Shown here one piece after another: positions 8,677-56,063 of a stretch of DNA of 64,000 nucleotides. The stretch is taken from the NCBI RefSeq assembly GCF_036507355.1, contig NZ_AP027877.1. One strand, given 5' to 3'. The translations under genes were made by a program, and so were the position numbers. This DNA comes from Escherichia coli. GTDB taxonomy: Bacteria > Pseudomonadota > Gammaproteobacteria > Enterobacterales > Enterobacteriaceae. The stretch's first letter is position 1, and the number at the start of each line of letters is the position of its first letter. The notes beneath the pieces were generated by a model. The model had not been told where the DNA came from. It saw only the letters and a program-made list of their open reading frames with translations, and ran no database searches.

Positions 8677-8722
8677 GAATGAAGGTGCCAGTGAGTGCGA
8701 AAACTGGCACCTTTCCCATGAC

Positions 8723-13040: not shown

Positions 13041-13058
13041 ATCAGGCATGAACGATGA

Positions 13059-14708
13059 TTAACCGCGCCACGCTTTATAGCGGTTAATCAGACCATTGGT
13101 CGAGCTATCGTGGCTGCTGATTTCTTTATCATCTTTCAGCTCTGGCAGAATACGGTTCGCCAGTTGTTTACCCAGCTCCACGCCCCACTGGTCGAAGGTG
13201 AAGATGTTCAGGATCACGCCCTGAGTAAAGATTTTGTGCTCATACAGCGCAATCAACGCACCCAGGCTGAACGGAGTGATTTCACGCAGCAGGATGGAGT
13301 TGGTCGGGCGGTTACCTTCGAACACTTTGAACGGCACCACGTAGTCAAGCGTTGCCGGATCTTTACCCTGATCGCGATATTCCTGCTCAACCACTTCGCG
13401 GGATTTACCAAACGCCAGCGCTTCGGTCTGAGCAAAGAAGTTAGACAGCAGTTTCTGGTGATGATCAGAGAGCGGGTTATGGGTGATAGCCGGGGCGATG
13501 AAATCGCACGGTACCATTTTGGTTCCCTGATGGATCAGCTGGTAGAACGCGTGCTGACCGTTAGTGCCTGGTTCACCCCAGATAATCGGGCCAGTCTGGT
13601 AATCCACAACGTTACCGTTACGGTCAACATACTTACCGTTGGACTCCATATTGCCCTGCTGGAAGTACGCCGCAAAACGGTGCATATACTGGTCATACGG
13701 CAGAATCGCTTCAGTTTCCGCACCAAAGAAATTGTTGTACCAGATGCCAATCAGCGCCAGCAAGACAGGCAGGTTTTTCTCGGCAGGCGTGGTGGAGAAA
13801 TGCTTGTCCATCGCGTGTGCGCCAGAAAGCAGTTCAACGAAGTTATCAAAGCCGATGGAGAGAACAATCGACAGGCCAATCGCTGACCACAAAGAGTAAC
13901 GGCCGCCGACCCAGTCCCAGAACTCGAACATGTTGGCAGTATCAATACCAAACTCGCCAACGGCTTTGGCATTGGTTGAGAGCGCCGCAAAGTGTTTCGC
14001 AACGTGTTTTTCATCACCTGCCGCTTTCAGGAACCAGTCACGCGCGCTATGGGCGTTGGTCATGGTTTCCTGAGTGGTGAAGGTTTTAGATGCTACCAGG
14101 AACAGCGTGGTTTCCGGGTTTACTTTTTTCAGCACTTCCGCGATATGAGTCCCATCGACGTTAGAAACAAAGTGCATGTTCAGGTGATTTTTGTACGGAC
14201 GCAGTGCTTCGGTCACCATGTACGGGCCGAGGTCAGAACCACCGATCCCGATGTTCACTACGTCAGTGATTGCTTTGCCGGTATAACCCTTCCACTCACC
14301 GGAAATAATCGCTTCCGAGAAGGTTTTCATCTTCTCCAGCACCGCGTTGACTTCCGGCATTACGTCTTTGCCATCAACCAGAATCGGGGTATTGCTACGG
14401 TTACGCAGCGCTACGTGCAGCACGGCGCGGTTTTCAGTGCGGTTGATCTTCTCGCCAGAGAACATCGACTTAATCGCGCCCGCCAGATCGCACTCTTTCG
14501 CCAGATCTTGTAATTTCGCCAGCGTCTCTTCAGTGATGCGGTTTTTGGAGTAATCCACCAGCATCTGATCGTCGAAGGTTGCGGAGAACTTAGAAAAACG
14601 ATCGCCGTCTTTAGCAAAAAGATCGGCGATCGTAACGTCTTTCATTTCATCGAAGTGTTTCTGTAGTGCCTGCCAGGCAGCGGTCTGCGTTGGATTGATG
14701 TTTTTCAT
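13059..14708 (-). CDS. pgi: glucose-6-phosphate isomerase Pgi (549 aa)
   Basis: ORF 13059..14714; [31 protein letters not shown]...; start at ATG two codons inside ORF-track start. Confidence 0.97.
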
Positions 14709-14949
14709 TAGCAATACTCTTCTGATTTTGAGAATTGTGACTTTGGAAGATTGTAGCGCCAGTCACAGAAAAATGTGATGGTTTTAGTGCCGTTAGCGTA
14801 ATGTTGAGTGTAAACCCTTAGCGCAGTGAAGCATTTATTAGCTGAACTACTGACCGCCAGGAGTGGATGAAAAATCCGCATGACCCCGTCGTTGACAACC
14901 GCCCCGCTCACCCTTTATTTATAAATGTACTACCTGCGCTAGCGCAGGC

Positions 14950-15200
14950 CAGAAGAGGCGCGTTGCCCAAGTAACGGTGTTGGAGGAGCCAGTCCTGTGA
15001 TAACACCTGAGGGGGTGCATCGCCGAGGTGATTGAACGGCTGGCCACGTTCATCATCGGCTACAGGGGCTGAATCCCCTGGGTTGTCACCAGAAGCGTTC
15101 GCAGTCGGGCGTTTCGCAAGTGGTGGAGCACTTCTGGGTGAAAATAGTAGCGAAGTATCGCTCTGCGCCCACCCGTCTTCCGCTCTTCCCTTGTGCCAAG
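14950..15200 (+). promoter_or_regulatory. lysine riboswitch (L-box) in lysC 5' leader
   Basis: Long structured leader upstream of lysC containing AGAGGCGC...GGAGGAGCC...CTGTGATAAC...GAGGGGG motifs characteristic of the lysC LYS element. Confidence 0.8.
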
Positions 15201-15232: not shown

Positions 15233-16582
15233 ATGTCTGAAATTGTTGTCTCCAAATTTGGCGGTACCAGCGTAGCTGATTTTGACGCCATGAACCGCAG
15301 CGCTGATATTGTGCTTTCTGATGCCAACGTGCGTTTAGTTGTCCTCTCGGCTTCTGCTGGTATCACTAATCTGCTGGTCGCTTTAGCTGAAGGGCTGGAA
15401 CCTGGCGAGCGATTCGAAAAACTCGACGCTATTCGCAACATCCAGTTTGCCATTCTGGAACGTCTGCGTTACCCGAACGTTATCCGTGAAGAGATTGAAC
15501 GTCTGCTGGAGAACATTACTGTTCTGGCAGAAGCGGCGGCGCTGGCAACGTCTCCGGCGCTGACAGATGAACTGGTCAGCCACGGCGAGCTGATGTCGAC
15601 CCTGCTGTTTGTCGAGATCCTGCGCGAACGCGATGTTCAGGCACAGTGGTTTGATGTACGTAAAGTGATGCGTACCAACGACCGATTTGGTCGTGCAGAG
15701 CCAGATGTAGCCGCGCTGGCGGAACTGGCCGCGCTGCAGCTGCTCCCACGCCTCAATGAAGGCTTAGTGATCACCCAGGGATTTATCGGTAGCGAAAATA
15801 AAGGTCGTACAACGACGCTTGGCCGTGGAGGCAGCGATTATACGGCAGCCTTGCTGGCGGAGGCTTTACACGCATCTCGTGTTGATATCTGGACCGACGT
15901 CCCGGGCATCTACACCACCGATCCACGCGTGGTTTCCGCAGCAAAACGCATTGATGAAATCGCGTTTGCCGAAGCAGCAGAGATGGCAACTTTTGGTGCA
16001 AAAGTACTGCATCCGGCAACATTGCTACCCGCAGTACGCAGCGATATCCCGGTCTTTGTCGGCTCCAGCAAAGACCCACGCGCAGGTGGTACGCTGGTGT
16101 GCAATAAAACTGAAAATCCGCCGCTGTTCCGCGCGCTGGCGCTTCGTCGCAATCAGACTCTGCTCACTTTGCACAGCCTGAATATGCTGCATTCTCGCGG
16201 CTTCCTCGCGGAAGTTTTCGGCATCCTCGCGCGGCATAATATTTCGGTAGACTTAATCACCACGTCAGAAGTGAGCGTGGCATTAACCCTTGATACCACC
16301 GGTTCAACCTCCACTGGCGATACGTTGCTGACGCAATCTCTGCTGATGGAGCTTTCCGCACTGTGCCGGGTGGAGGTGGAAGAAGGTCTGGCGCTGGTCG
16401 CGTTGATTGGCAATGACCTGTCAAAAGCCTGCGGCGTTGGCAAAGAGGTGTTCGGCGTACTGGAACCGTTCAACATTCGCATGATTTGTTACGGCGCATC
16501 CAGCCATAACCTGTGCTTCCTGGTGCCCGGCGAAGATGCCGAGCAGGTGGTGCAGAAGCTGCATTTTAATTTGTTTGAGTAA
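15233..16582 (+). CDS. lysC: lysine-sensitive aspartokinase III LysC (449 aa)
   Basis: ORF track; MSEIVVSKFGGTSVADFDAMNRSADIVLSDANVRLVVLSASAGITN... Confidence 0.98.
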   Translation: MSEIVVSKFGGTSVADFDAMNRSADIVLSDANVRLVVLSASAGITNLLVALAEGLEPGERFEKLDAIRNIQFAILERLRYPNVIREEIERLLENITVLAEAAALATSPALTDELVSHGELMSTLLFVEILRERDVQAQWFDVRKVMRTNDRFGRAEPDVAALAELAALQLLPRLNEGLVITQGFIGSENKGRTTTLGRGGSDYTAALLAEALHASRVDIWTDVPGIYTTDPRVVSAAKRIDEIAFAEAAEMATFGAKVLHPATLLPAVRSDIPVFVGSSKDPRAGGTLVCNKTENPPLFRALALRRNQTLLTLHSLNMLHSRGFLAEVFGILARHNISVDLITTSEVSVALTLDTTGSTSTGDTLLTQSLLMELSALCRVEVEEGLALVALIGNDLSKACGVGKEVFGVLEPFNIRMICYGASSHNLCFLVPGEDAEQVVQKLHFNLFE

Positions 16583-16726
16583 TATTTCCCTACTGGCGTA
16601 TAACGCTCACCAATTGTTATACGCCATCCTCACTGAAAACATAGATTAAATAATATCTGAAAAGCAAAATCACTCCTGTAGAACAGTATTATAACCACCG
16701 AAAAATATCATTTAACAGGAGTGTTA

Positions 16727-17656
16727 ATGGCTACTTTAATGGAAAAGGATGCACTTTTAAACGGCGCCAGTCAGTGCATCGCGTTTTTATCAAATATCGT
16801 CGACAGTTGTTTTTCCTCACAAGTTCAGGACTCAGACGATGAGCTATCACAATTAGTCAGCTATCGCGACAATCTTTATTCCACTCCAGCAGAAATTGTT
16901 GATTTTACACAGGGAATGTTACGCCTCCAGCAGGTCAGAAAAAAGTATCAGCGTGAATTTAATAATACTGCGCATTCAGAAAATAAAGCGTCTTTTGATT
17001 CTATTTGGCAGCGTCTGACAAACCATGACGTCACATCCCAGCAGAGTCCCATTGGTTTTGTTTTAGGTGGACAACCAGGAGCCGGAAAATCCATCCTAAT
17101 CGAATTAGCAAAAAGGGAAACAAAGAATAATATAATGATTATTAATGGTGATGATTTCAGATTTCTACACCCTGATTTTAATTATATATATCAAACTTAT
17201 GGCGACGATTTTGTTACCCATACGGCAAAATTTTCCGGCGAAACGGTCGAACGTGCAATAGAGAGGGCCATAGCCAATAAACTCAATATTGTTGTCGAAG
17301 GAACATTTCGTAATGCCGCTACGCCGCTACAAACATTAAAAAAACTCAAAGATGCAGGCTACCGAACAGAAGTCATGATAAAAACCACCTCAGCGGCATT
17401 AAGCTGGGAAAGCACCAACGAACGGTATAATAAGGACAAAGAGGCGGGAAATATCGCCCGCAAAGTGGATAAAAATCACCATGATATCGTCACCGATTTG
17501 CTAGCAGAAAATGCCAGCAAGGTGTTTGCTTCAAACCTGGCAGATAAGTTTGCGGTGTATTCGCGTGAGAAGATGATATTTAGTTCACAAGCGGCAACCA
17601 ATTGCGATATTGCAACGCTTATACAAAATGAAATCAGCGGAAGTGCACAAGAATAA
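16727..17656 (+). CDS. zeta-toxin-family P-loop kinase with ~100-aa N-terminal extension (EzeT-like single-chain toxin/antitoxin candidate)
   Basis: ORF 16721..17656; ATG at 16727 preceded by AGGAG; Walker A GGQPGAGKS followed by motifs resembling zeta/PezT UDP-GlcNAc kinases (INGDDFR..HP, EGTFR); AT-rich codon usage; not part of the K-12 lysC-yjbD arrangement as I recall it. Confidence 0.7.
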   Translation: MATLMEKDALLNGASQCIAFLSNIVDSCFSSQVQDSDDELSQLVSYRDNLYSTPAEIVDFTQGMLRLQQVRKKYQREFNNTAHSENKASFDSIWQRLTNHDVTSQQSPIGFVLGGQPGAGKSILIELAKRETKNNIMIINGDDFRFLHPDFNYIYQTYGDDFVTHTAKFSGETVERAIERAIANKLNIVVEGTFRNAATPLQTLKKLKDAGYRTEVMIKTTSAALSWESTNERYNKDKEAGNIARKVDKNHHDIVTDLLAENASKVFASNLADKFAVYSREKMIFSSQAATNCDIATLIQNEISGSAQE

Positions 17657-17688
17657 TAAAAGCTGATGACCTGAAATAACGCCGGGCA

Positions 17689-18489
17689 TCACGCCCGGCG
17701 CATTACCGTCTGGTACAGTAAGCTATCCAGTTTCTTAACGTCCCCTTCTCTACTATCCGGTAACACAGGCGGAATTTCCCCACGCGCCAGTTCCGCATGG
17801 ATAAACGCATGTAGCAATGGACGGCGTGGGCCATATTCCGCTTCACCCGCACGCTGTTTACGTTCCAGTAATTCATCTATTTCTGCGCGTAAGGCCGCAT
17901 CCAACTCACTTCCCGCCAGCAATTCGGAAAAACGCATTGGCGGTACGCCTTTTCCCGCTTCAACCCAACGCACGGCCAGCAACGGACGCAGCACGTAAAA
18001 GTATTTTTTCAGTCGAACTTCATCGCCCTGCAAATATCCGCGGAAGTTTTTCTGCGCCATCGAATAGTAATGCCAGCGCGCACGCAGCGGAGAAAACCAC
18101 GTTGGGACCATTGCCTTAAGCGCCGTTATCGTTTCTTCATCTTGTTGATAGACCACCGGAGAATCCAGCCATTCTATCAGCGTCGGGTTCGCGCCTTTCA
18201 ATAATCCCAGCGCCTTACGCCACTCCCAACCGGAAACATCTAACTCGTCGTCGATGGGCAGCTCAATAACATCGCGCGGTGACTCTACTCGCAGATACCA
18301 TTCCAGCGGGTGAACATACAAAAACCGTACATCGTAGTCGCTGTCGGGCGAGGCAAATCCCCAACCGCGACTCCCCGATTCACAGGCGTACAGTACTTTC
18401 ACATCATACCGCCGTTCAATTTCTTTTAACTGCTGCGATACCCTTTCGCGCATCGCAGCACTGACTCCATTTAATGGCATGTTACTCAC
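17689..18489 (-). CDS. Pol-beta-superfamily nucleotidyltransferase (266 aa), uncharacterised
   Basis: ORF track; ESGSRGWGFASPDSDYDVRFLY = GS-x9-DxD nucleotidyltransferase motif; start overlaps stop of upstream SPFH gene by 4 bp. Confidence 0.7.
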   Translation of the reverse strand: MSNMPLNGVSAAMRERVSQQLKEIERRYDVKVLYACESGSRGWGFASPDSDYDVRFLYVHPLEWYLRVESPRDVIELPIDDELDVSGWEWRKALGLLKGANPTLIEWLDSPVVYQQDEETITALKAMVPTWFSPLRARWHYYSMAQKNFRGYLQGDEVRLKKYFYVLRPLLAVRWVEAGKGVPPMRFSELLAGSELDAALRAEIDELLERKQRAGEAEYGPRRPLLHAFIHAELARGEIPPVLPDSREGDVKKLDSLLYQTVMRRA

Positions 18490-19613
18490 CCTTTGATATT
18501 AACCAACCCGTGCAGAACCTGATCCAGACCGCCAAATACAGAGATGTTATCAATCCGCTCAGCCACTCTCTCCAGCGTTTCCAGCTCTTTTAAACGCAAC
18601 GCTACCGGATTGTTCTCCATGACTTTGGCGGTGTTCAGTAACGAGCGCGTCGCTGCCGTTTCTTCACGTCGGCGAATCACATTCGCCTGCGCAGATTTCT
18701 CTGCCTCAACCAGCTGCGCAAGGATATTTTTCATATCGCCAGGCAGGACGATATCTTTCACCCCTAATGAAGCAATCTCCATACCGAACGGCTTCATGCG
18801 CGATTTCACCTGTTCGCTGACAACGTCATCAATGACCTGTTTATCTTCCAGCAATTCATCCAGCGTACGCGTACCTACCACTTCACGCAGTGCAAATTGC
18901 AATTCCCGATACAAATGATCAATCGGCTTCGTTAACTGACTAAATGCTAATAACACGTCGCTGTAGCGCCAGTTAGCCGCGAGGTTAATCCGCAGATTGA
19001 CCTTATCTTTCGTTAAGATTTCTTGCCCGCTGACTTCCAGTACCTGCAAGCGGGTGTCAACCACTTCAGCTTCAACCAGATGGTTAATTTTCCAGTACGC
19101 GGTAAGCCCCGGCGGTAACAGCGCCTGCGTTTCACCATCGATTTTCAGCACGCCTACATGCCAGGCCGGAACCTGCACCGTCAGTATCGCATCGCGGCCT
19201 TTAACAACTCCTTTGCGCCGTGGCTGTAATACCGCATTCATCACCTCCGTTTGTACCGGGACTTGCTGCGTATTCATCCGCACCAGCGTCAAATCATCCT
19301 CTACACGCCAGTACAAACGACGCGTTGATGGCGGCAGGATCTCCAACAAAATACCGTCCATATACAACACCCCGGCTTCAGTCTCCGACAAGTCTGCCAC
19401 CAGGCAATATTTCTCCACCCAATCAGGCTGAAAGCGGCGCAAATAATCCGCAAGCACGTCGGGAACTTCGCTACCATCCAGCGTAATCAGCAACACTTCC
19501 GGGGTATTTAACCAGGGTAAAATATGCTCGCCTGCATGCAGCACTTTGTAGTAATCGCCGTTTCTGGAGAGTAATGCCAGCTGATCTTTTCTTACGCTTA
19601 TTTTTTTAATCAT
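18486..19613 (-). CDS. SPFH/band-7 (stomatin/flotillin-like) domain protein without obvious N-terminal TM helix (375 aa)
   Basis: ORF track; C-terminal half has band-7 hallmarks (GMEIASLGVKDIVLPGDMKNILAQLVEAEKSAQANVIRRREETAA...LRLKELETLERVAERI); hydrophilic N-terminus. Confidence 0.7.
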   Translation of the reverse strand: MIKKISVRKDQLALLSRNGDYYKVLHAGEHILPWLNTPEVLLITLDGSEVPDVLADYLRRFQPDWVEKYCLVADLSETEAGVLYMDGILLEILPPSTRRLYWRVEDDLTLVRMNTQQVPVQTEVMNAVLQPRRKGVVKGRDAILTVQVPAWHVGVLKIDGETQALLPPGLTAYWKINHLVEAEVVDTRLQVLEVSGQEILTKDKVNLRINLAANWRYSDVLLAFSQLTKPIDHLYRELQFALREVVGTRTLDELLEDKQVIDDVVSEQVKSRMKPFGMEIASLGVKDIVLPGDMKNILAQLVEAEKSAQANVIRRREETAATRSLLNTAKVMENNPVALRLKELETLERVAERIDNISVFGGLDQVLHGLVNIKG

Positions 19614-20141
19614 TATCTATTCCTTGCTTAATAGCCGTCGCGGAAGCAGACACGAAGCGACAGGGGAATTCCCTTTTGCCTGTTACCCGGCATCTTTATC
19701 GGCGACGTTATCGGGGACCGCAGACTGCGCAATCCCTCATTTTTTATTTAATAAGTTACAACCAGTATTCATTTCAGGAATGAATGTGGGAATCGAACCC
19801 GTAATTGGCGTCAAAGGCTGATGGAACACGCCCGGAAAACAGCCTGGCCGTTCCTGGTGTGCCGACGGGGTTTAACCCCCTTTGTAATTCAGTATCAACG
19901 CAAAAGTGTTATTGCGAGAAGCGTGCCAGAAGTGATAAAAAATTTTAATTACATGAAAAATAAAGATTTAATAAATCATTATTGTTTGTAGGGGGAGATT
20001 TTTTCGCTAAATTTGTATCTGTATTTATCGTCAATTATCAAGAAAGATAAATATTTAAGAAGAGAACAAAGGAATATTATCAGTTCTGCTTGCAAATAAA
20101 TTCCCGTACACTGAACTATCCGATTAACAGAGGGCACCATC

Positions 20142-25242: not shown

Positions 25243-26067
25243 ATGGAACAGAGAAAAATTACACGCGGCGATCTGGTGAGCATGTTTCTGCGCTCCAACC
25301 TGCAACAGGCGTCCTTTAACTTTGAACGTATTCACGGGCTGGGTTTTTGCTACGACATGATCCCCGCCATCAAGCGACTTTACCCATTAAAAGAGGATCA
25401 GGTTGCGGCGCTCAGGCGACACCTGGTGTTCTTCAATACCACGCCAGCCGTATGTGGCCCGGTCATCGGCGTCACTGCCGCCATGGAAGAGGCGCGGGCC
25501 AACGGCGCGGAAATTGATGACGGTACCATTAACGGCATCAAAGTCGGCCTGATGGGACCGTTGGCAGGGGTTGGCGATCCACTGGTCTGGGGAACGCTGC
25601 GCCCGATTACCGCCGCGCTCGGCGCATCTCTGGCACTTTCGGGCAACATTCTCGGCCCGCTGCTGTTCTTCTTTATTTTCAACGCGGTGCGTCTGGCGAT
25701 GAAGTGGTATGGCCTACAGCTCGGCTTTCGCAAAGGGGTGAATATCGTCAGCGATATGGGCGGGAATGTGCTGCAAAAACTCACCGAAGGCGCGTCGATT
25801 CTCGGACTGTTTGTGATGGGCGTGCTGGTCACCAAATGGACGTCAATCAACGTACCGTTGGTGGTTTCACAAACGCATGCCGCCGATGGCTCCACCGTCA
25901 CCATGACCGTGCAGAACATTCTCGACCAACTTTGCCCTGGTTTGCTGGCGCTCGGTCTGACGCTACTAATGGTTCGTCTGCTCAACAAAAAAATTAACCC
26001 GGTATGGCTGATTTTCGCCCTGTTTGGCTTAGGGATTATCGGCAATGCGCTGGGCTTCCTGTCCTGA
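25243..26067 (+). CDS. sorM: PTS mannose-family EIID, sorbose-specific (274 aa)
   Basis: ORF 25213..26067; start taken at MEQRKITRGDLVSMFLRS after GGAG. Confidence 0.88.
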   Translation: MEQRKITRGDLVSMFLRSNLQQASFNFERIHGLGFCYDMIPAIKRLYPLKEDQVAALRRHLVFFNTTPAVCGPVIGVTAAMEEARANGAEIDDGTINGIKVGLMGPLAGVGDPLVWGTLRPITAALGASLALSGNILGPLLFFFIFNAVRLAMKWYGLQLGFRKGVNIVSDMGGNVLQKLTEGASILGLFVMGVLVTKWTSINVPLVVSQTHAADGSTVTMTVQNILDQLCPGLLALGLTLLMVRLLNKKINPVWLIFALFGLGIIGNALGFLS

Positions 26068-26118
26068 TTCTTCGCCCCGGCACGACTGCCGGGGCCATCG
26101 CTCAACATGAGGTGGTTT

Positions 26119-27348
26119 ATGAAAACAACAGCTCTGCGTCTTTATGGTAAACGTGATTTACGCCTGGAAACCTTTGACCTTCCTGAAATGCAGGAGGATG
26201 AAATCCTCGCGACGGTGGTCACTGACAGCCTGTGTCTCTCTTCCTGGAAAGAGGCCAACCTGGGTGAAAACCATAAAAAAGTACCCGACGATGTGGCGAC
26301 CAACCCAATCATCATCGGCCACGAGTTTTGCGGCGATATTCTGGCCGTGGGTAAAAAGTGGCAGCACAAATTCCAGCCGGGTCAGCGTTATGTGATTCAG
26401 GCCAACCTGCAACTCCCCGACCGCCCGGACTGCCCCGGCTACTCCTTCCCGTGGGTAGGCGGCGAAGCCACGCATGTGGTTATTCCCAACGAGGTCATGG
26501 AACAAGATTGCCTGCTGGCATACGACGGCGAAACCTATTTTGAAGGCTCGCTGGTTGAACCGCTTTCCTGCGTGATTGGCGCGTTCAACGCCAACTATCA
26601 TCTTCAGAAAGGTAGTTATAACCACACGATGGGGATTCGCCCGCAAGGGCGCATGCTGATCCTCGGCGGCACCGGACCAATGGGGCTGTTGGCGATTGAT
26701 TATGCGCTGCATGGACCCGTTAACCCGTCGCTGCTCGTCATTACCGATACCGACAACGATAAATTGAGTTATGCGCGCAAGCACTATCCATCAGAATCGC
26801 AAACACTGATTCATTATCTCAATGCCACCGATGCAGCATTTGATACGCTAATGGCGCTGAGTGGCGGTCACGGCTTCGATGATATTTTCGTCTTTGTGCC
26901 TAATGAAGGACTGGTGACTCTCGCCTCTTCCTTGCTGGCGACAGATGGTTGCCTGAATTTCTTCGCCGGACCGCAGGATAAACATTTCAGCGCGCCAATT
27001 AATTTCTACGATGTGCATTATGCATTTACCCACTACGTGGGCACGTCAGGCGGCAATACCGACGACATGCGCGCAGCGGTCAAATTGATTGAAGAGAAAA
27101 AAGTGCAGGCCGCAAAAGTGGTAACACATATTCTTGGGCTGAATGCCGCGGGCGAAACCACGCTTGAATTGCCTGCCGTCGGCGGCGGCAAAAAGCTGGT
27201 GTATACCGGGAAATACCTGCCGCTGACGTCACTCACGCAGATTCAGGATCAAGCACTGGCGGCGATTCTGACGCGTCATCAGGGGATCTGGTCCGGTGAG
27301 GCGGAGCAATATCTGCTCACTCATGCAGAGGCAATTTCCCATGATTAA
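26119..27348 (+). CDS. sorE: zinc-dependent MDR-family dehydrogenase SorE (sorbose-1-phosphate reductase-like, ~409 aa)
   Basis: ORF 26107..27348; start taken at MKTTALRLYG; last gene of sorCDFBAME. Confidence 0.85.
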   Translation: MKTTALRLYGKRDLRLETFDLPEMQEDEILATVVTDSLCLSSWKEANLGENHKKVPDDVATNPIIIGHEFCGDILAVGKKWQHKFQPGQRYVIQANLQLPDRPDCPGYSFPWVGGEATHVVIPNEVMEQDCLLAYDGETYFEGSLVEPLSCVIGAFNANYHLQKGSYNHTMGIRPQGRMLILGGTGPMGLLAIDYALHGPVNPSLLVITDTDNDKLSYARKHYPSESQTLIHYLNATDAAFDTLMALSGGHGFDDIFVFVPNEGLVTLASSLLATDGCLNFFAGPQDKHFSAPINFYDVHYAFTHYVGTSGGNTDDMRAAVKLIEEKKVQAAKVVTHILGLNAAGETTLELPAVGGGKKLVYTGKYLPLTSLTQIQDQALAAILTRHQGIWSGEAEQYLLTHAEAISHD

Positions 27349-27509
27349 TCGCACTACTCAACTCTGCATGTCGCTGGCAGGTCGCCGCGGCAACTTCGCG
27401 ACCTGATGTGCGGCTGATTGCTGAAGCGGCCCAATGTGCACGAGAAGGATAAAAAAACATCAGCGCCTTAAGGGGCGCTCAAATTGGTGGCAAAGTACAC
27501 ATTGTTTAT

Positions 27510-27612
27510 GCCGGATGCGGAATAAAGCCTTATTCGGCCTACATAATCTCGAAAATTCAATATATTGCAGTTATCTGGTAGGCCTGGTAAGCGTAGCGCA
27601 TCAGGCAATGCT
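27510..27612. repeat. REP/BIME elements between sorE and pepE
   Basis: TGCCGGATGCGGAATAAAGCCTTATTCGGCCTACA ... GGTAGGCCTGGTAAGCGTAGCGCATCAGGCAATG. Confidence 0.8.
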
Positions 27613-27730
27613 GTGTTTGTCATCAGTCTCAGCGCCCGGTGCAATACGTGACATCGTGAGCCATGTCAGTAAGTGGTTAAATTCGCAGTGGTAGCATGCC
27701 TTCCGTGATTTCTTACTAACCGGAGAAGTA

Positions 27731-28420
27731 ATGGAACTGCTTTTATTGAGTAACTCGACGCTGCCGGGTAAAGCCTGGCTGGAACATGCACTGCCGCTGA
27801 TTGCTGAACAGTTGCAGGGTCGCCGCTCAGCGGTGTTTATCCCTTTCGCTGGCGTAACGCAGACCTGGGATGATTACACAGCGAAAACGGCTGCGGTTCT
27901 TGCTCCGCTGGGTGTTTCTGTCACCGGTATTCATAACGTTGTCGATCCCGTTGCCGCGATTGAAAATGCGGAAATTGTGATTGTCGGCGGCGGGAATACT
28001 TTCCAGTTGCTGAAACAGTGCCGCGAGCGCGGGCTGCTGGCTCCAATTACTGACGTGGTTAAACGTGGTGCGCTGTATATTGGCTGGAGCGCAGGCGCTA
28101 ACCTTGCTTGCCCAACCATTCGTACCACCAACGATATGCCGATTGTCGACCCGCAAGGTTTCGATGCGCTGAATCTGTTCCCGTTGCAAATCAACCCGCA
28201 CTTCACCAACGCGTTGCCGGAAGGCCATAAAGGTGAAACCCGTGAACAGCGTATTCGCGAACTGCTGGTCGTCGCGCCAGAACTGACGATTATTGGTCTG
28301 CCGGAAGGTAACTGGATCACAGTGAGTAAAGGTCACGCTACGCTGGGTGGCCCGAACACCACTTATGTGTTTAAGGCTGGTGAAGAAGCGGTTCCGCTAG
28401 AAGCTGGTCACCGTTTTTAA
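27731..28420 (+). CDS. pepE: alpha-aspartyl dipeptidase PepE (229 aa)
   Basis: ORF track; [41 protein letters not shown]... Confidence 0.95.
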
Positions 28421-28424
28421 GTGA

Positions 28425-28500
28425 ATTGCCGGATGCATGATCCGGCATCTTGTTCATAGTGCCTGATGCGACGCTTGACGCGTCTTATCAGGCCTACAGG
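28425..28500. repeat. REP elements downstream of pepE
   Basis: TGCCGGATGCATGATCCGGCA palindrome plus GCCTGATGCGACGCTTGACGCGTCTTATCAGGCCTACAGG. Confidence 0.75.
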
Positions 28501-28510
28501 ATTCACAATA

Positions 28511-30142
28511 TTAATACTCGTCCCGTCCTTCATCTTCATCCGGCTGTTCCAGCACACTGTAAGCCACCGAACAAAACAGCGAGTTCAGGCGCTGCATATC
28601 TCCCAGTAAGCCTAAATGTAGCGAACTGGTTTCAATGCTCTGCACGTTTTGCTGATGCAGGCGATCGACGTGGGCGTGGGAATAGCGGCGATTAAGAATG
28701 CGAAAACGATGTTTGCTGCGGCGCAAACGACGGGCGCTGGTAACATCCCCAGAGAAGAAAACCGACATTGCCAGTTTTAAATTACTGAGCAATTGCTCAT
28801 AGAGCGCATCCAGTTCCTTCAACCCATCAAGCGAAAATGCCCGCCGTGCTGCCAGCGATTTATCAGCAATTTCGCTGCCCATGCGCTCGACGATATCGGA
28901 GGCCTGTTCAAGGTTGAGCGACATTTCGATGATCTCCGCCCAGCGGCGCGACTCTTCCTCCGCCAGCTCTTCTTTTGGCATCCGCGCCAGATACAGCTTA
29001 ATGGCGGTATAGAGAACGTTGATATCATCTGCCAGCTTACGCAGCTCTTTCTCCTGCCGTGGCTCGCCGTGCATCACTTTATTCAGCCCTTCCATCATCT
29101 GTTCCATGGCGTCGCCAATGCGCAGGGTTTCGCGCGCGGCGTTCGCCAGAGCAAGCGTGGGCGTATCCAGCGCGCTGACATCCAGATGTTTAGGCCGTAG
29201 CTGGGTATCCAGTTCCGGTTCATCGCGAATAATCGTTTTGCAAAACCGTGCCATCGGGTCAACAAATGGCAGCATGACCAGGCAACGTATAAGGTTGTAG
29301 AAGACGTGGAAATAGATCACCAGTTCCGCTTTTGGCAATGACAACCTCCCCATTGTCTCTGCCAGCAAATGGACAAACGGCAGGATAATCAGGCTACCCA
29401 CCAGCTTAAACAGCAAACTACCCAGCGCGACACGGCGGGCTGCGGCATTGGCGGCACTGTTGTTGAGCATCGCCAGCAGGCCGGAACCGAGGTTAGCACC
29501 AATCACCAGACAGAGCGCCACGGGGAAGGAGATAATGCCTGCGGCGGTCAGAGTCGCAGTCAGCAGTACAGCAGCAAGGCTGGAGTAGCTGATAATGGCG
29601 AACATCGCGCCAATCAGCGCATCCAGCAGAATATCGCCGGTCAGCGAGGCAAAGATCACCTGAACGCCGTTTGCCTGGGTGATCGGCGTTACGGCCTGCA
29701 CAATCAACTCCAGCGCCAGCAAAATCAGCCCAAGACCAATACCGACGCGGCCCAGTTGCCCGGCGCGTGACTGTTTGCGTCCGAGGAAAAAAATCACGCC
29801 GATAAAAATAAGTAACGGTGACAGCCAGGATAAGTCGAAGGTGAGAATACGCGCCATTAGCGCCGTCCCGACATCAGCACCCAGCACAATCACCAGAGCC
29901 GGTGCGAGGGCTACCAGATCCTGAGCGACGAACGAGGTCACCAGCATGGTGGTGGCATTACTGCTCTGCACCAGTGCGGTAACGCCGATCCCCGCGCAAA
30001 AGGCGAGCGGCTTCTTTTCGACGCTCCGGCTAAGGACAGTACGCAAACGCGCGCCGAAGACGCGCATTACGCCGGTTCGAACAATATGAGTCCCCCAGAC
30101 CAGCAGGGCGACGGCAGAAAGCAGGTGAAGCAGCGTTAACAC
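28511..30142 (-). CDS. yjbB: putative Na+/phosphate cotransporter-family membrane protein YjbB (543 aa)
   Basis: ORF track; polytopic N-terminal domain plus PhoU-like C-terminal domain. Confidence 0.9.
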   Translation of the reverse strand: MLTLLHLLSAVALLVWGTHIVRTGVMRVFGARLRTVLSRSVEKKPLAFCAGIGVTALVQSSNATTMLVTSFVAQDLVALAPALVIVLGADVGTALMARILTFDLSWLSPLLIFIGVIFFLGRKQSRAGQLGRVGIGLGLILLALELIVQAVTPITQANGVQVIFASLTGDILLDALIGAMFAIISYSSLAAVLLTATLTAAGIISFPVALCLVIGANLGSGLLAMLNNSAANAAARRVALGSLLFKLVGSLIILPFVHLLAETMGRLSLPKAELVIYFHVFYNLIRCLVMLPFVDPMARFCKTIIRDEPELDTQLRPKHLDVSALDTPTLALANAARETLRIGDAMEQMMEGLNKVMHGEPRQEKELRKLADDINVLYTAIKLYLARMPKEELAEEESRRWAEIIEMSLNLEQASDIVERMGSEIADKSLAARRAFSLDGLKELDALYEQLLSNLKLAMSVFFSGDVTSARRLRRSKHRFRILNRRYSHAHVDRLHQQNVQSIETSSLHLGLLGDMQRLNSLFCSVAYSVLEQPDEDEGRDEY

Positions 30143-30361
30143 GAGTTCAGGTTCTCCTTATCGTTATATGTTCCTGAAGCAATTGAATGACCAAAGGACC
30201 GGAAACACGCTGACTGGCATCTTTACTGTGCCTTTTGACATTCGTTTTTCCGGCTAAGATTATTCCAGCCTGTTTCCAGTATAAGTGTTTCATATTAATA
30301 AAGAGACAGGGCACTCATTGAGCGCCCTGTTTGTTGTAAGGAAAAGTGACAGATTTGTGAA

Positions 30362-34045
<3,684 letters not shown>

Positions 34046-34243
34046 ACTTGCTCCCGACACGCTCAACCCAGATTTAATAAAAATTCAACAAACCATACTG
34101 GCATAAACGCATCAGTGGTAAAAGCGACCACCACGCAATATGAGATTTGTTCAACATTAACTCATCGGATCAGTGTGGCAACTATTGCATTACACCACAA
34201 TAAAAATGAAAATGATTTCCACGATACAGAAAAGGAGACTGTC

Positions 34244-35068
34244 ATGGTCGCACCCATTCCCGCAAAACGCGGCAGAAAACCCGCCGTTGCCACCGCACCA
34301 GCGACTGGACAGGTTCAGTCTTTAACGCGTGGGCTGAAATTACTGGAGTGGATTGCCGAATCCAATGGCAGTGTGGCTCTTACGGAACTGGCACAGCAAG
34401 CCGGATTACCTAATTCCACTACTCACCGCCTGCTAACCACGATGCAACAACAGGGCTTTGTCCGTCAGGTTGGTGAACTGGGTCACTGGGCGATCGGCGC
34501 ACATGCTTTTATGGTCGGCAGTAGCTTTCTCCAGAGCCGTAATTTGTTAGCCATTGTCCATCCTATTCTGCGCAATCTGATGGAAGAGTCTGGCGAAACG
34601 GTAAATATGGCAGTGCTGGATCATAGCGATCACGAAGCGATTATTATCGACCAGGTACAGTGTACGCATCTGATGCGTATGTCAGCCCCTATCGGCGGTA
34701 AGTTACCAATGCATGCCTCTGGTGCCGGTAAAGCTTTTTTAGCCCAACTGAGCGAAGAACAGGTGACGAAACTTCTGCATCGCAAAGGCTTACATGCCTA
34801 TACCCACGCGACGCTGGTGTCTCCTGTGCATTTAAAAGAGGACCTCGCCCAGACGCGTAAACGTGGCTATTCATTTGACGATGAAGAACATGCGCTGGGG
34901 CTTCGTTGCCTCGCGGCGTGTATTTTCGATGAACACCGCGAACCATTTGCCGCAATTTCGATTTCCGGGCCGATTTCACGTATTACCGATGATCGCGTAA
35001 CCGAGTTTGGCGCGATGGTGATTAAAGCGGCGAAGGAAGTAACGCTGGCGTATGGCGGAATGCGGTGA
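34244..35068 (+). CDS. iclR: glyoxylate-shunt repressor IclR (274 aa)
   Basis: ORF 34025..35068; start taken at MVAPIPAKRGRKPAVATAPATGQVQSLTRGLKLLEW preceded by AAGGAG; upstream in-frame extension judged spurious. Confidence 0.95.
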   Translation: MVAPIPAKRGRKPAVATAPATGQVQSLTRGLKLLEWIAESNGSVALTELAQQAGLPNSTTHRLLTTMQQQGFVRQVGELGHWAIGAHAFMVGSSFLQSRNLLAIVHPILRNLMEESGETVNMAVLDHSDHEAIIIDQVQCTHLMRMSAPIGGKLPMHASGAGKAFLAQLSEEQVTKLLHRKGLHAYTHATLVSPVHLKEDLAQTRKRGYSFDDEEHALGLRCLAACIFDEHREPFAAISISGPISRITDDRVTEFGAMVIKAAKEVTLAYGGMR

Positions 35069-35084
35069 CATTTTCGCCTCTGAT

Positions 35085-36809
<1,725 letters not shown>

Positions 36810-36836
36810 TTAGCGCCCTCATCAGGAGCAGAGAAT

Positions 36837-36972
36837 TGCCGGATGCGGCGTAAACGCCTTATCCAGCCTACGTTCGGCAACGGTTGTAGGCATGATAAGA
36901 CGCGCAAGCGTCGCATCAGGCATCGTGCACCGATTGCCGGATGCGGCGTAAATGCCTTATCCGGCCTACAGT
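36837..36972. repeat. REP/BIME cluster between aceA and aceK
   Basis: Multiple GCCGGATGCGGCGTAAACGCCTTATCC / GTAGGCATGATAAGACGCG units. Confidence 0.85.
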
Positions 36973-36992
36973 CAGCAACGTTTGTAGGTTGC

Positions 36993-38297
36993 TTAGAACT
37001 GCGATTCTTCAGTGGAGCCGGTCAGCGCGGTGACTGAAGACGTGCCGCCCTGAATAATGGTCGTCACTTTATCGAAGTAACCTGTACCCACTTCCTGCTG
37101 GTGAGATACGAAGGTGTAGCCATCTTTCGCGGCGGCGAATTCCGGCTGCTGCACTTTCTCAACATAGTGCTTCATACCCTCGCCCTGGGCATAGGCGTTT
37201 GCCAGGTCAAACATGTTGAACCACATGCTGTGGATACCTGCCAGGGTGATGAACTGGAACTTGTAGCCCATATCCGACAGCTGCTGCTGGAAGCTGGCAA
37301 TAGTGTTGTCGTCGAGGTTTTTCTGCCAGTTGAACGACGGCGAGCAGTTATAAGCCAGCAGTTTGCCCGGATATTTCGCGTGGATGGCTTGTGCAAAGCG
37401 ACGCGCCAGTTCCAGATCCGGCGTGGAGGTTTCACACCATACCAGGTCAGCATATGGCGCATACGCCAGGCCACGGCTGATCGCTTGCTCAATGCCCGCA
37501 TGAGTACGGAAGAAGCCTTCACTGGTACGCTCGCCGGTAATAAATTCGCTGTCATACGGGTCGCAATCGGAGGTAATCAGATCCGCCGCATCGGCATCGG
37601 TACGAGCAACCAGTAGGGTTGGAACGCCCGTCACGTCAGCTGCCAGACGCGCCGCGACCAGTTTCTGAATAGCTTCTTGAGTTGGCACCAAAACTTTGCC
37701 GCCCATGTGACCGCATTTCTTCACTGACGCCAGCTGATCTTCGAAGTGAACTGCCGCTGCACCGGCTTCAATCATCGCTTTCATCAGTTCAAAGGCATTC
37801 AGGACACCGCCAAAACCGGCTTCCGCATCGGCAACGATCGGCAGGAAGTAATCGACATAGCGCGGATCGCCCGGCTCAATGCCCGCGGACCATTGGATCT
37901 GATCCGCACGGCGGAAAGTATTGTTGATCCGCTCCACCACCGCTGGCACCGAGTTCGCCGGGTAGAGCGACTGATCCGGATACATGCTGGCCGCCAGGTT
38001 AGCGTCCGCCGCTACCTGCCATCCCGACAGATAGACCGCTTCAATACCCGCTTTCGCCTGTTGCAGCGCCTGACCGCCAGTCAATGCACCGAGGCTGTTG
38101 ATGTAGCCTTTTTTCGACTCGCCATGCAGCAGACGCCACATTTTCGCCGCGCCCAGTTGCGCCAGCGTGCATTCAGGATTGACTGAACCGCGTAATTTCA
38201 CCACATCTTCCGCGCTGTATGGGCGAGTAATGCCTTCCCAACGCGGTTGAGTCCACTCTTTCTGTAATTCTTCAATTTGTTGTGTACGGGTTTTCAT
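36993..38297 (-). CDS. aceA: isocitrate lyase AceA (434 aa)
   Basis: ORF 36993..38312; start taken at [37 protein letters not shown]; KKCGH active site. Confidence 0.97.
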
Positions 38298-38326
38298 GTG
38301 CAGATGCTCCATAGTTATGTGGTGGT

Positions 38327-39928
38327 TTACGCTAACAGGCGATAGCCTGGCAGGGTCAGGAAATCAATTAACTCATCGGAAGTGGTGATCTGTTCCATCA
38401 AGCGTGCGGCATCGTCAAAACGCCCCTGGGAGAAACGTTCTGCGCCCAGTTCGCTGGCAATGACTTTCATCTCTTCGCCCAGCATCTGGCGGAACAAGGC
38501 TTTAGTTACCGGTTTGCCATTGCTCAACATTTTTTGATGATGGATCCACTGCCAGATCGAGGTACGGGAAATTTCAGCCGTCGCCGCATCTTCCATCAGG
38601 CCATAAATCGGCACACAGCCGTTGCCAGAGATCCACGCTTCGATGTACTGCACGGCTACGCGAATATTTGCGCGCATACCTTCTTCGGTGCGTTCACCGT
38701 CACAAGGTGCCAGTAGCTGATCGGCAGTAATCGGCGCGTCTTGTTCGCGCATCACTTCAAGCTGATTTTTACGGGAGCCGAGAATGTCGTTGAATACCGC
38801 CATTGCCGTATCCGCAAGGCCTGGGTGAGCGATCCATGTGCCATCGTGACCGTTATTGGCTTCCAGCGATTTATCCGCTTTTACTTTGTTGAGCACCTGG
38901 TTATTGTGCTCTTCATCTTTGCTCGGAATAAACGCCGCCATGCCGCCCATCGCAAAAGCACCGCGTTTATGGCAGGTTTTAATCAACAGGCGTGAGTAAG
39001 CATTCAGGAATGGTTTATCCATCGTTACTGCCTGTCTGTCTGGCAGGACGCGATCGGGATAGTTTTTCAACGTTTTGATATAGCTGAAGATGTAATCCCA
39101 ACGACCGCAGTTCAGACCAACAATATGGTCACGCAGCGCGTGAAGGATTTCATCCATCTGGAACACGGCGGGCAGCGTTTCAATCAGCAACGTCGCCTTG
39201 ATGGTGCCGCGCGGCAGATTAAAGCGATCTTCTGCATAGCTGAAGACTTCGCTCCACCAGGCCGCTTCCTGCCAGGACTGGGTTTTCGGCAGATAGAAAT
39301 AGGGACCACTGCCCTTTGCCAACAGTGCCTGATAGTTGTGGAAGAAATAGAGCGCAAAATCAAACAGGCTGCCGGGGATTGCCTCACCACGCCAGGTGAC
39401 ATGTTTTTCCGGCAAGTGCAGACCGCGTACCCGACAAATCAAAACCGCTGGATTGGGCTTGAGCTGGTAAATTTTGCCTGCTTCATTCGTGTAACTGATG
39501 GTGCCGTTAACCGCATCGCGCAGGTTAATTTGCCCGTCGATCACTTTGTTCCAGTCTGGTGCCAGTGAATCTTCGAAATCGGCCATAAAGACTTTCACAT
39601 TGGCGTTCAGTGCGTTGATCACCATCTTGCGCTCAACCGGGCCAGTTATCTCGACTCGACGATCTTGTAAGTCCGCGGGAATACCACGAATTTTCCAGTC
39701 TGTATCGCGAATGGAAGCTGTTTCCGAAATAAAATCAGGCAACGTTCCGTTATCAATATCTTGCTGCTGCTGAATGCGCGCTGCCAGAAGTTTATTGCGT
39801 TGTGGCGTAAAATGCGTCACCAGCTCAGTCAGAAATTCTACCGCTTCGGCAGTAAGAATTTGCTTCTCCTGCTCGCCATACGGCCTTATGAAAGCCAGTT
39901 CATCGGTTGTTGTTGCCTGTTCAGTCAT
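38327..39928 (-). CDS. aceB: malate synthase A AceB (533 aa)
   Basis: ORF 38327..39946; start taken at [13 protein letters not shown]; aceBAK promoter/IclR-site region lies upstream (~39930-40130). Confidence 0.97.
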
Positions 39929-40127
39929 CGTGCAGCTCCTCGTCATGGATCCGAAAACTTCCCCACTGTGAACGAAGGATCGTTGTGCGCTTTTCGTTCA
40001 GCACAACTAAGACTACTCATTTAAAATGCAAAATCAAAAACAATTTCCATTTTAATTAAAAATACTTGATAACTTATTGATAACAATATGAATAAAATTT
40101 ATTCACCTCCTGAGGTGCGTTTCGGAA

Positions 40128-40160
40128 ATAAAAAAGGCACCCGAAGGTGCCTGAGGTAAG
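40128..40160 (-). terminator. Rho-independent terminator of metA
   Basis: On minus strand GGCACCTTCGGGTGCC hairpin followed by TTTTTTATTTCC, just downstream of the metA stop. Confidence 0.8.
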
Positions 40161-40196
40161 GTGCTGAATCGCTTAACGATCGACTATCACAGAAGA

Positions 40197-41126
40197 TTAA
40201 TCCAGCGTTGGATTCATGTGCCGTAGATCGTATGGCGTGATCTGATAGACGTAATAGTTGAGCCAGTTGGTAAACAGCAAATTACCGTGACTACGCCAGC
40301 TCGCTCGCGGTGTATTTTGCGGATCATTGTGCGGGAAATAGTTATACGGTACTTCCGGGTCTAGTCCGGCTTCCACATCGCGGAAAAATTCCTGCGCCAG
40401 CGTTTGCGCATCATATTCGGGATGGCCCGTCACAAAGGCAATGCGCTTATCTTTACTGGCAAACAGATATGCATCCCCTTCTTCCGTCTCTGCCAGAATT
40501 TCCAGATCGGTGTAATCACGAATCAACGCTGCCGGAAAGTCAGCATAGCGCGAATGCGGTGCCAGGAATGAATCATCAAAGCCACGCGTCAGAAGCGCAT
40601 GAGGATGGAGAATATGATGCTCGTAAACGCCAGAGAGTTTGTCGGTGCGAGTTTGCTTAGGAATGCCGTAGAGGATATTGAGCGCGGCCTGTACCGCCCA
40701 GCAGACAAACAGCGTCGAGGTGACGTGATCTTTCGACCACTCCAGCACCTGTTTGATCTGCGGCCAGTAAGCAACATCATTAAACTCCACCAGGCCCAGC
40801 GGCGCACCGGTTACAATCAGACCGTCAAAGTTCTGTTCCTGAATATCTTCAAAGTTACAGTAGAAGTTGTTCAGATGCTCTGCGGGCGTGTTGCGCGATT
40901 CACGGGAATCGATGCGCAACAGCTGAATATCGACCTGCAAAGGTGAGTTTGAAAGCAGGCGCAGAAACTGATTTTCAGTTTCAATCTTCTTCGGCATCAG
41001 GTTAAGGATAAGCACCTTTAGCGGACGAATTTCCTGACCAGACGCGCGAGAAGTTGTCATTACAAAGACGTTTTCTTCACGCAAGAAATTGACGGCGGGT
41101 AGCTCGTCCGGCACACGAATCGGCAT
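40197..41126 (-). CDS. metA: homoserine O-succinyltransferase MetA (309 aa)
   Basis: ORF track; [51 protein letters not shown]... Confidence 0.97.
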
Positions 41127-41159
41127 AACCTGATTACCTCACTACATACGCTTATACGT

Positions 41160-41180
41160 TTAGACATCCAGATAGCTGAA
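41160..41180 (-). promoter_or_regulatory. possible MetJ met-box repeats in metA promoter region
   Basis: AGACATCC AGATAGCT tandem 8-mers resembling the AGACGTCT met-box consensus upstream of metA; weak sequence-only call. Confidence 0.35.
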
Positions 41181-41282
41181 GATAACCAGAAAATTTGCCA
41201 ATGTCGAGCCTGCATGTTGAAGGTGAGAAAGTTTCAAGGAAAAGACTACGTTAGAATATAAGAATGACTAAAAGGAGAGAAA

Positions 41283-41726
41283 ATGGTTATTAGTATTCGC
41301 CGCTCGCAGCATGAAGAGAGTGAAAAACTGATTGCGATTTGGTGTCGCTCGGTCGATGCCACCCACGATTTTTTGTCCGCAGAGTATCGGGCCGAACTGG
41401 AAGAACTGGTGCGTTCCTTTCTGCCGGAAGCACCGTTGTGGGTCGCGGTTAATGAGCGGGAACAGCCGGTTGGGTTTATGTTGTTAAGTGGGCAGCATAT
41501 GGATGCGCTGTTTATCGATCCTGATGTGCGCGGCTGCGGCGTGGGCCGGATGCTGGTGAAGCATGCGCTCTCAATGGCCCCGGAACTGACAACCAACGTT
41601 AATGAGCAAAATGAGCAGGCGGTTGGGTTCTATAAGAAGGTGGGTTTTAAGGTTACGGGACGCTCTGAGGTGGACGATTTGGGGAAACCGTATCCGTTGC
41701 TGAATCTGGCGTATGTGGGGGCGTAG
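41283..41726 (+). CDS. yjaB: GNAT-family N-acetyltransferase YjaB (147 aa)
   Basis: ORF track; acetyl-CoA-binding motif RGCGVGRMLVKHAL. Confidence 0.9.
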   Translation: MVISIRRSQHEESEKLIAIWCRSVDATHDFLSAEYRAELEELVRSFLPEAPLWVAVNEREQPVGFMLLSGQHMDALFIDPDVRGCGVGRMLVKHALSMAPELTTNVNEQNEQAVGFYKKVGFKVTGRSEVDDLGKPYPLLNLAYVGA

Positions 41727-41789
41727 GTGATTTTTTTCTCATCCCGGTGGGCTGAACTTCAGGTTTCGTACCCACCAATGGTGACACGA

Positions 41790-42173: not shown

Positions 42174-42209
42174 GAGATTCCCTTCATCATGCAAATAATT
42201 GATATGCAA

Positions 42210-42240
42210 AAAACCCCGGCCTTATGGACCGGGGTTTTTC
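42210..42240 (-). terminator. rrnE operon terminator
   Basis: AAACCCCGGTCCATAAGGCCGGGGTTTTTT hairpin plus U-run on minus strand directly after 5S rRNA. Confidence 0.85.
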
Positions 42241-54336: not shown

Positions 54337-54382
54337 GAGTAAAAATGACTCGCTACCCACAGCAGGCGAGTCATTTTTACTC
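54337..54382. promoter_or_regulatory. ZraR enhancer-binding palindrome between divergent zraP and zraSR
   Basis: Perfect 17-bp inverted repeat GAGTAAAAATGACTCGC-N12-GCGAGTCATTTTTACTC centred between the two sigma54 promoters. Confidence 0.7.
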
Positions 54383-55877: not shown

Positions 55878-56063
55878 AAGTTATCCTTACAATGTGTTTA
55901 TCGCTTGCTAAGCATCGAGTGCGACGGAAATGCCAGAATAGCACTCTCCTGCATACACGCACCGATAGCCACTTTTTTTCGCCCCCCAAATGTAGACCAG
56001 ACGGGGGGCGAAAGGGAAGACTCCAGGTACGACAAATCAGGCGTTAAATCACGTTTTCTGGTC

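Follow-up and report, generated by a model that had tools for sequence, protein, structure and literature searches.

The lysC gene in the 64-kb stretch of Escherichia coli DNA analyzed here (the window) is followed closely by a stem-loop without a uridine run, which is conserved through compensatory substitutions and which also occurs independently of ezeT, the toxin gene lying behind it in this genome. It is probable that this hairpin ends the lysC mRNA as a U-less stem-loop, defining and protecting a 3' end generated by Rho-dependent termination. The hairpin is a real, conserved and ordinary element, and the interesting biology is found around it, in the alternative cargos of the locus and in the placement of a toxin behind a riboswitch-controlled gene.

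Position and Fold of the Hairpin

The stop codon of lysC (TAA, 16580-16582, + strand) is followed by a spacer of 11 nt, TATTTCCCTAC (16583-16593, +), which is partly matched by the corresponding spacer of Superficieibacter, ATTCCCGC. The left arm of the hairpin (16594-16605, +) consists of TGGCGTATAAC (16594-16604) and G16605, the loop (16606-16614, +) is the 9-nt sequence CTCACCAAT, and the right arm (16615-16626, +) consists of U16615 and GTTATACGCCA (16616-16626). A repeat finder detected 11 perfect pairs between 16594-16604 and 16616-16626, with 11 nt between the arms, while RNA folding adds G16605:U16615 as a twelfth pair and thus leaves a loop of 9 nt. The perfect repeat described in the initial annotation is therefore real, with 11 perfect pairs plus a G:U pair instead of the 10 bp given, and the gap separating it from the lysC stop codon is 11 nt and not about 15. 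The fold of 16583-16640 has a predicted energy of -15.7 kcal/mol (z = -5.7), a stability reached by no sequence among 200 shuffles.

As in intrinsic terminators, a stable stem-loop (12 bp) is thus found shortly after the gene, 11 nt past the lysC stop. A run of uridines (about 5 or more of 8) is absent 3' of the stem, where the tail reads TCCTCACTGAAAAC and where UCCUCACUGAAAAC likewise holds none, and a terminator scan did not call the site, which bears out the earlier view that this is no canonical intrinsic terminator. A stable stem lacking a U-rich tail at the end of a transcription unit is what characterizes protective 3' stem-loops, and the lysC hairpin has this anatomy. No sigma-70 promoter overlapping the palindrome was found, and no Rfam family was detected at the hairpin.

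In Markov-1 simulations, 0.34 perfect 11-bp hairpin repeats with a loop of at most 15 nt are expected per 64 kb, compared with six observed in the window, including one at the 3' end of pgi. This class of repeats is enriched well above chance in the window, and the lysC hairpin is no chance match since it is conserved in other genera. The other perfect inverted repeats of at least 11 bp in the window are located at 8682-8713, 13056-13090 (the pgi 3' end), 42209-42239, 54337-54382 (a long repeat of 17 bp or more) and 55977-56013.

The lysC Locus and its Variable Slot

The lysC coding region is preceded by a lysine riboswitch in the leader (14945-15141, +; Rfam RF00168, 99.5 bits, E 2.5e-26), also annotated in near-identical genomes, which sets the amount of transcription arriving at the hairpin. 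The lysC gene (15233-16582, +), identified from the list of open reading frames and annotated as such in matching E. coli, encodes the lysine-sensitive aspartokinase III of 449 aa. Downstream of the hairpin lies an untranslated tract (16627-16716, +) with no U-run and with 18 C and 8 G in 90 nt. The following gene (16727-17656, +) starts 145 bp downstream of lysC, with the hairpin in between, and encodes a fused antitoxin/zeta-toxin (Pfam Zeta_toxin, 1.5e-40; PDB matches to PezT and Zeta; annotation as a zeta toxin family member). EzeT has been described as a fused antitoxin/toxin located beside lysC in E. coli of phylogroup B1 (PMC10532202; also PMC4826407), and the gene at 16727-17656 corresponds to this known toxin-antitoxin. 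It is followed by a convergent gene for an RlaP nucleotidyltransferase, a slipin gene and then yjbD and rluF.

When compared to a K-12-type genome, homology ends exactly at the lysC stop and restarts at window position 20012, so that about 3.4 kb of the window stands in place of 122 bp. In the region upstream of yjbD, the window and K-12 share only 83% identity. As a position, the left edge of the islet had thus been placed correctly in the initial annotation. Direct repeats, target duplications, tRNA genes and integrase or recombinase genes were looked for around the islet and none was found.

The slot between lysC and yjbD is hypervariable across Enterobacteriaceae. In Klebsiella and Enterobacter soli it is occupied by an SBF-like transporter, which in Yokenella is joined by RtcR/Band_7/RtcB; Salmonella has tail genes there, together with sugar or transporter genes. 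On the right, the breakpoint between the ezeT and tail-cluster haplotypes is found at position 17674 and immediately precedes a GC hairpin, CGCCGGGC-atcac-GCCCGGCG (within 17674-17701), which overlaps the RlaP stop and is common to both haplotypes. Upstream of the slipin (18486-19613) and RlaP (17689-18489) genes, the region 19614-20010 (-) holds a sigma-54-like box, TGGCACGCTTCTCGCA (19928-19913, -), and the leader of about 300 nt that lies 3' of this box contains the sequence GGGTTCGATTCCCA (19801-19787), which resembles a tRNA T-arm. Neither ARAGORN nor Rfam detected anything in this leader, and its folding is not unusual. In Yokenella the Band_7 gene is located with RtcB and RtcR, and one possibility is that slipin and RlaP form an orphan RNA-repair module of the Rtc type whose leader is Y-RNA-like.

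Distribution in E. coli and in Metagenomes

A survey of 5,426 complete E. coli genomes revealed an ezeT-type flank with the palindrome, always in one chromosomal copy, in 1,433 genomes, a K-12-type flank in 3,790 and a phage-tail cluster of about 16 kb between lysC and RlaP in 197. In the form present in the window, the palindrome occurs once per genome in exactly the 1,433 of 5,426 genomes carrying ezeT, and the 45 nt around the hairpin show at most two differences among these; the one difference noted in the sequences read is an A/G change in the loop at 16612. Elsewhere in the window, only chance-level near-matches to the repeat or its half-site were found. A degenerate pattern of the palindrome gave 115 matches in a metagenome scan, of which 24 correspond to the E. 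coli element, all 24 in the lysC-ezeT context, and the remainder are unrelated palindromes in about the number expected by chance. Viral contigs were also scanned for lysC ends, with none of 120 matches to a first, too unspecific pattern being lysC and no match to a second.

The tail cluster, as found in E. coli S10 (NZ_CP010229.1, locus coordinates 26024-41783), is a BcepMu-like contractile-tail cluster of about 16 kb with genes for mor, holin, transglycosylase, sheath, tube, tape measure, baseplate and fibres. In the 197 E. coli genomes it takes up the ezeT slot, and Salmonella, Superficieibacter and Enterobacter have it at the corresponding place. Its annotation includes neither capsid nor integrase genes, and it looks like a tailocin. 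The relatives of its Mor protein in phages are BcepMu-like with 48% identity, too distant to tell whether the hairpin came with the cluster.

Homologous Hairpins Without ezeT

Hairpins homologous to that of the window have been found at loci where ezeT was not seen among the genes called in the retrieved DNA. In E. coli with the tail cluster two types occur, both directly behind the lysC stop and in the register seen in the window: AGGCGAGTTGCGA-CCCCATA-TCGCTACTCGCC, and GGTGAATAGCG-ACCCACGA-CGCTATTCACC, with a perfect stem of 11 bp. Superficieibacter electus carries TGGCGTATAGC-GAAG-GCTATACGCCA 9 nt past lysC, and an Enterobacter hormaechei-like contig carries ATGGCGTAA...TTTACGCCAT. In Salmonella, the hairpin GGCGTATAGCG-CTTGT-CGCTATACGCC was recovered with 28.3 bits (E 5e-5) by a covariance model that had been built from the other homologues and not trained on this one. 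A REP-like element, GCCGGATGGCGACGCAAGCGCCTTATCCGGCC, recognized by eye (locus coordinates 1700-1775), is inserted between lysC and the Salmonella hairpin, which is consequently left nearer to mor. A cryptic Escherichia clade has the ezeT arrangement and a TATAGC/GCTATA version of the stem.

All homologues lacking ezeT lie between lysC and a convergent mor gene, and no homologue has a U-run 3' of the stem. The perfect arms are separated by 4 to 11 nt, and the loops, of 4-9 nt or more, are unrelated in sequence between homologues. Homology between the ezeT and tail-cluster haplotypes ends within a few bases after ...CGCCAT, on the 3' side of the stem. Since the hairpin is present after lysC with another cargo, the tail cluster, and in three other genera, these comparisons place its origin before that of ezeT. 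The best explanation is that it is an old feature of the locus, which lay between lysC and a convergent mor before ezeT took the slot in Escherichia.

These loci bear on two suggestions of the initial annotation. The identical palindrome downstream of lysC in strains without the islet had been proposed as the sign of an ancestral lysC 3' structure, and the ezeT-less loci provide this in substance; the K-12 flank itself, where it was to be sought, does not carry it, and K-12-type strains, in which the whole islet is missing, have a different, canonical terminator without detectable homology. The suggestion of a remnant left by the arrival of the downstream genes is not supported in the form proposed, as the hairpin predates ezeT; it is true, though, that the ezeT and tail-cluster haplotypes part only a few bases from the stem on its 3' side. 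A scar of the junction was consequently rejected, the hairpin being older than the junction, as was a disguised form of the K-12 terminator, with which the palindrome has no detectable homology.

Compensatory Changes in the Stem

In a hand alignment anchored at the outer GGCG/CGCC pairs, five stem positions show double changes with pairing retained, namely C-G/U-A, U-A/A-U (two) and A-U/G-C (two), together with one one-sided G:U/G-C change and only two unpaired cells. A tool count, in which the Enterobacter-like row was imperfectly aligned, gave double changes at four pairs in six cells, with 87.5% of cells paired compared to 22-52% when partners were slid. The covariation score was reached by none of 500 shuffles, in a set of about 8 distinct sequences representing few independent events. 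A16603 covaries with T16617: the pair is G/C in the cryptic Escherichia clade, Superficieibacter and Salmonella. When E. coli is compared with the cryptic clade, which also carries ezeT, one compensated pair (A-U vs G-C) is the only difference in the stem, whereas the loop has changed at 3 of its 9 positions and the spacer at 4 of its 11. This pattern is the signature of selection acting on pairing and not on sequence.

At the innermost position the ezeT types have a G:U pair, while the two E. coli types and the Salmonella type adjacent to mor, where the stem is also read from the convergent mor, have G-C. As a G:U at this position pairs only in RNA of the lysC sense, it constitutes a small hint toward the lysC-sense strand. 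Taking into account that the sequence drifts, the loop shrinks and four to five pairs change in a compensated manner, a hairpin selected for its structure is indicated rather than a protein operator.

Proposed Role at the lysC 3' End

Among the suggestions of the initial annotation, a Rho-dependent or RNA-stability element is the one we favour, given the conserved structure, the absence of a U-tract in the homologues and the excess of C over G downstream. In the proposed sequence of events, RNA polymerase would transcribe past the hairpin, and Rho would load on the untranslated, C-rich and G-poor RNA on its 3' side and terminate transcription in the gap of 100 nt. The RNA would then be trimmed back to the base of the stem by 3'-to-5' exonucleases, leaving a stable end on the lysC mRNA. 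As a side effect, little of the riboswitch-controlled transcription of lysC would enter the toxin gene, and the hairpin probably limits lysC read-through into ezeT. The participation of Rho, the protection from exonucleases and the insulation of ezeT are those parts of the model that we infer.

A study of Rho-dependent 3' ends in E. coli has described stable U-poor stem-loops with a mild downstream preference for C over G (Dar and Sorek, 2018; PMC6061677). Such stem-loops block PNPase and RNase II, with rut sites located just downstream (PMC6061677). The lysC hairpin shares with this class a stable stem past the coding region and the lack of a uridine-rich tail and of an upstream A-tract, and it is assigned to the class by its anatomy. 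In the window C exceeds G downstream, with a C/G ratio of 2.25 in the 90 nt 3' of the stem, which makes 16627-16716 a candidate Rho-loading region; downstream of some homologues the ratio is 1.0-1.6, a weak bias or none. As the U-tract is absent in every lineage, it is likely that the hairpin belongs to the U-less, Rho-terminated class.

A hairpin is found just past the lysC stop in every locus arrangement read. The canonical lysC terminators of K-12-type strains, Klebsiella and Enterobacter soli have the same expected job and a comparable stability, and they lie at 5 nt (K-12-type) and about 30 nt (Klebsiella and Enterobacter soli) past the stop, compared with 11 nt for the hairpin of the window. 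In sequence they differ: the K-12-type terminator has a 13-bp stem followed by the U-run UGAUUUUCUU, whereas the hairpin described here has none, and in Klebsiella and Enterobacter soli the stem is AGCCGGG..CCCGGCU with U5-6 behind it, both stems being unrelated to that of the window. The recurrence of a hairpin after lysC in unrelated forms indicates that a transcript-end hairpin is a recurring requirement at this spot. Considering that all the ezeT-less homologues lie between convergent lysC and mor genes, the hairpin may have served mor as much as lysC.

Alternative Explanations

The alternative with most in its favour, although we consider it rather unlikely, is that the hairpin is a weak, non-canonical intrinsic terminator at which RNA polymerase stops without Rho or a U-tract, with some read-through feeding ezeT. 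The stem is stable and conserved, and it sits where K-12-type strains, Klebsiella and Enterobacter soli have their canonical lysC terminators. It is, however, only moderately GC-rich, and a U-run accompanies it in no homologue. The termination efficiency of E. coli RNA polymerase drops steeply without a U-tract, which counts against direct termination.

It is less likely still that the hairpin is a leftover of a lysC/mor terminator which lost its function in ezeT strains after ezeT replaced the tail cluster. Outside ezeT strains the hairpins do all adjoin mor, the ezeT and tail-cluster haplotypes diverge directly after the stem, and the uniformity of the 1,433 E. coli genomes could stem from recent shared ancestry. 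A functionless stem would nonetheless not be expected to differ from that of the cryptic clade by a compensated pair when seven uncompensated changes have arisen in the loop and spacer. The innermost G:U pair of the ezeT types, which pairs only in lysC-sense RNA, also argues against it, and lysC still requires a 3' end at this place.

A recombination site acting at the DNA level, at which a hairpin or cruciform would be used by a structure-specific recombinase to swap the cargo beside lysC, is very improbable. The hairpin does lie at the fixed left border of a slot that is filled in at least three alternative ways in E. coli and in further ways in related genera, the right border (17674) also abuts a hairpin, and structure is conserved while sequence is not. 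Against this, integrase, transposase and flanking direct repeats are absent, the element is single-copy in each genome, the bases resembling an integron core (AAC/GTT) are not conserved in homologues, and borders adjacent to terminators are expected anyway if homologous recombination takes place in the conserved flanking genes. An extended form, in which the hairpin is a transcript end and at the same time the left anchor of a cargo-exchange hotspot with the GC-stem at 17680-17701 as the right anchor, and in which ezeT, the ~16-kb phage-tail cluster and transporters would be swapped by a structure-specific DNA process, is in our judgement highly doubtful.

The resemblance to integron attC sites deserves mention in this context, as these are also recognized by structure and not by sequence. 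The integron core consensus is RYYYAAC / GTTRRRY, and the inner stem of the window (..TATAAC / GTTATA..) is one mismatch from such cores. The lysC hairpin is nonetheless too short, with no second pair of boxes and no extrahelical bases; its cores are not conserved in the homologues, and no integrase was found in the annotated neighbourhood. REP and BIME elements are similar in being imperfect-to-perfect palindromes of about 33 nt that are intergenic and located after a gene, and REPs can stabilise upstream mRNA. In contrast to these dispersed, many-copy elements, the lysC hairpin is single-copy, with one copy in each of the 1,433 genomes and none elsewhere, and it has no match to the REP consensus; the REP-like element beside the Salmonella hairpin is clearly different from the hairpin.

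An operator for a dimeric DNA-binding protein regulating ezeT or lysC, the protein-binding palindrome of the initial annotation, has the least probability of all. The dyad symmetry is perfect, and type II toxin-antitoxin operons are often autoregulated via palindromes (PMC4826407), but four to five stem positions change identity, each change being compensated, the arm spacing goes from 11 to 4-5 nt, and the hairpin lies about 60 nt upstream of the likely ezeT -10 box and occurs without ezeT. It is also absent upstream of the ezeT relatives in Pseudocitrobacter and of the split antitoxin/zeta operons, and EzeT has no DNA-binding domain in Pfam. The palindrome thus neither overlaps the toxin-antitoxin promoter nor travels with the toxin-antitoxin genes, and the variable spacing by itself largely refutes an operator.

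The ezeT Gene and its Upstream Region

The ezeT allele of the window is a minority form, found at 99% identity or more in 47 genomes, while most ezeT genomes are about 92-93% identical to the window over 17300-18100, which covers the 3' part of ezeT and the adjoining end of RlaP. The intergenic region between lysC and ezeT is 98.6% identical, unlike the diverged 17300-18100, and the comparison suggests two deeply diverged ezeT alleles. The likely -10 box of ezeT (16690-16695, +) is TATAAC in the window, whereas a perfect TATAAT is present in most E. coli and in the split antitoxin/zeta relatives. The allele of the window may therefore have a weakened promoter.

A second perfect pairing, of 9 bp, can be drawn between CACTCCTGT (16671-16679, +) and ACAGGAGTG (16715-16723, +), whose right arm covers, and so would sequester, the AGGAG Shine-Dalgarno sequence of ezeT at 16717-16721. 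As the likely -10 box of ezeT is located downstream of the left arm, this pairing would form only in RNA read through from lysC, and it could possibly constitute a second layer of insulation for the toxin. In the cryptic Escherichia clade it contains one mismatch.

The nearest non-fused relatives of EzeT, retrieved from metagenome and Logan contigs, are two-gene operons in which an 82-aa gene overlaps a zeta toxin gene of 232-266 aa, with 70% identity over the toxin part. Two of these split antitoxin/zeta operons lie beside the plasmid genes ParB, PsiA and PcfJ. These operons are consistent with the published idea that EzeT originated from the fusion of a bicistronic operon. The possibility that the palindrome belongs to the ezeT cargo was rejected, as it is absent upstream of the EzeT homologue of Pseudocitrobacter (63% identity) and of the split operons on plasmid-like contigs, which share with ezeT only the Shine-Dalgarno region and the TATAAT box. 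An ERIC-like element, recognized by eye (locus coordinates 2480-2590), lies upstream of the ezeT homologue in Pseudocitrobacter.

Biological Significance

With a U-less stem-loop as the probable end of the lysC mRNA, the lysC transcription unit in about a quarter of E. coli genomes, mostly those carrying ezeT, gains a defined 3' element. The model further suggests a way in which ezeT, a toxin gene located 145 bp downstream of a biosynthetic gene under riboswitch control, escapes being driven by lysC transcription. The locus provides a clean and small example of a gene-end hairpin without a U-tract that has been maintained across genera by compensatory substitutions, a case in favour of regarding such hairpins as selected features and not as accidents.
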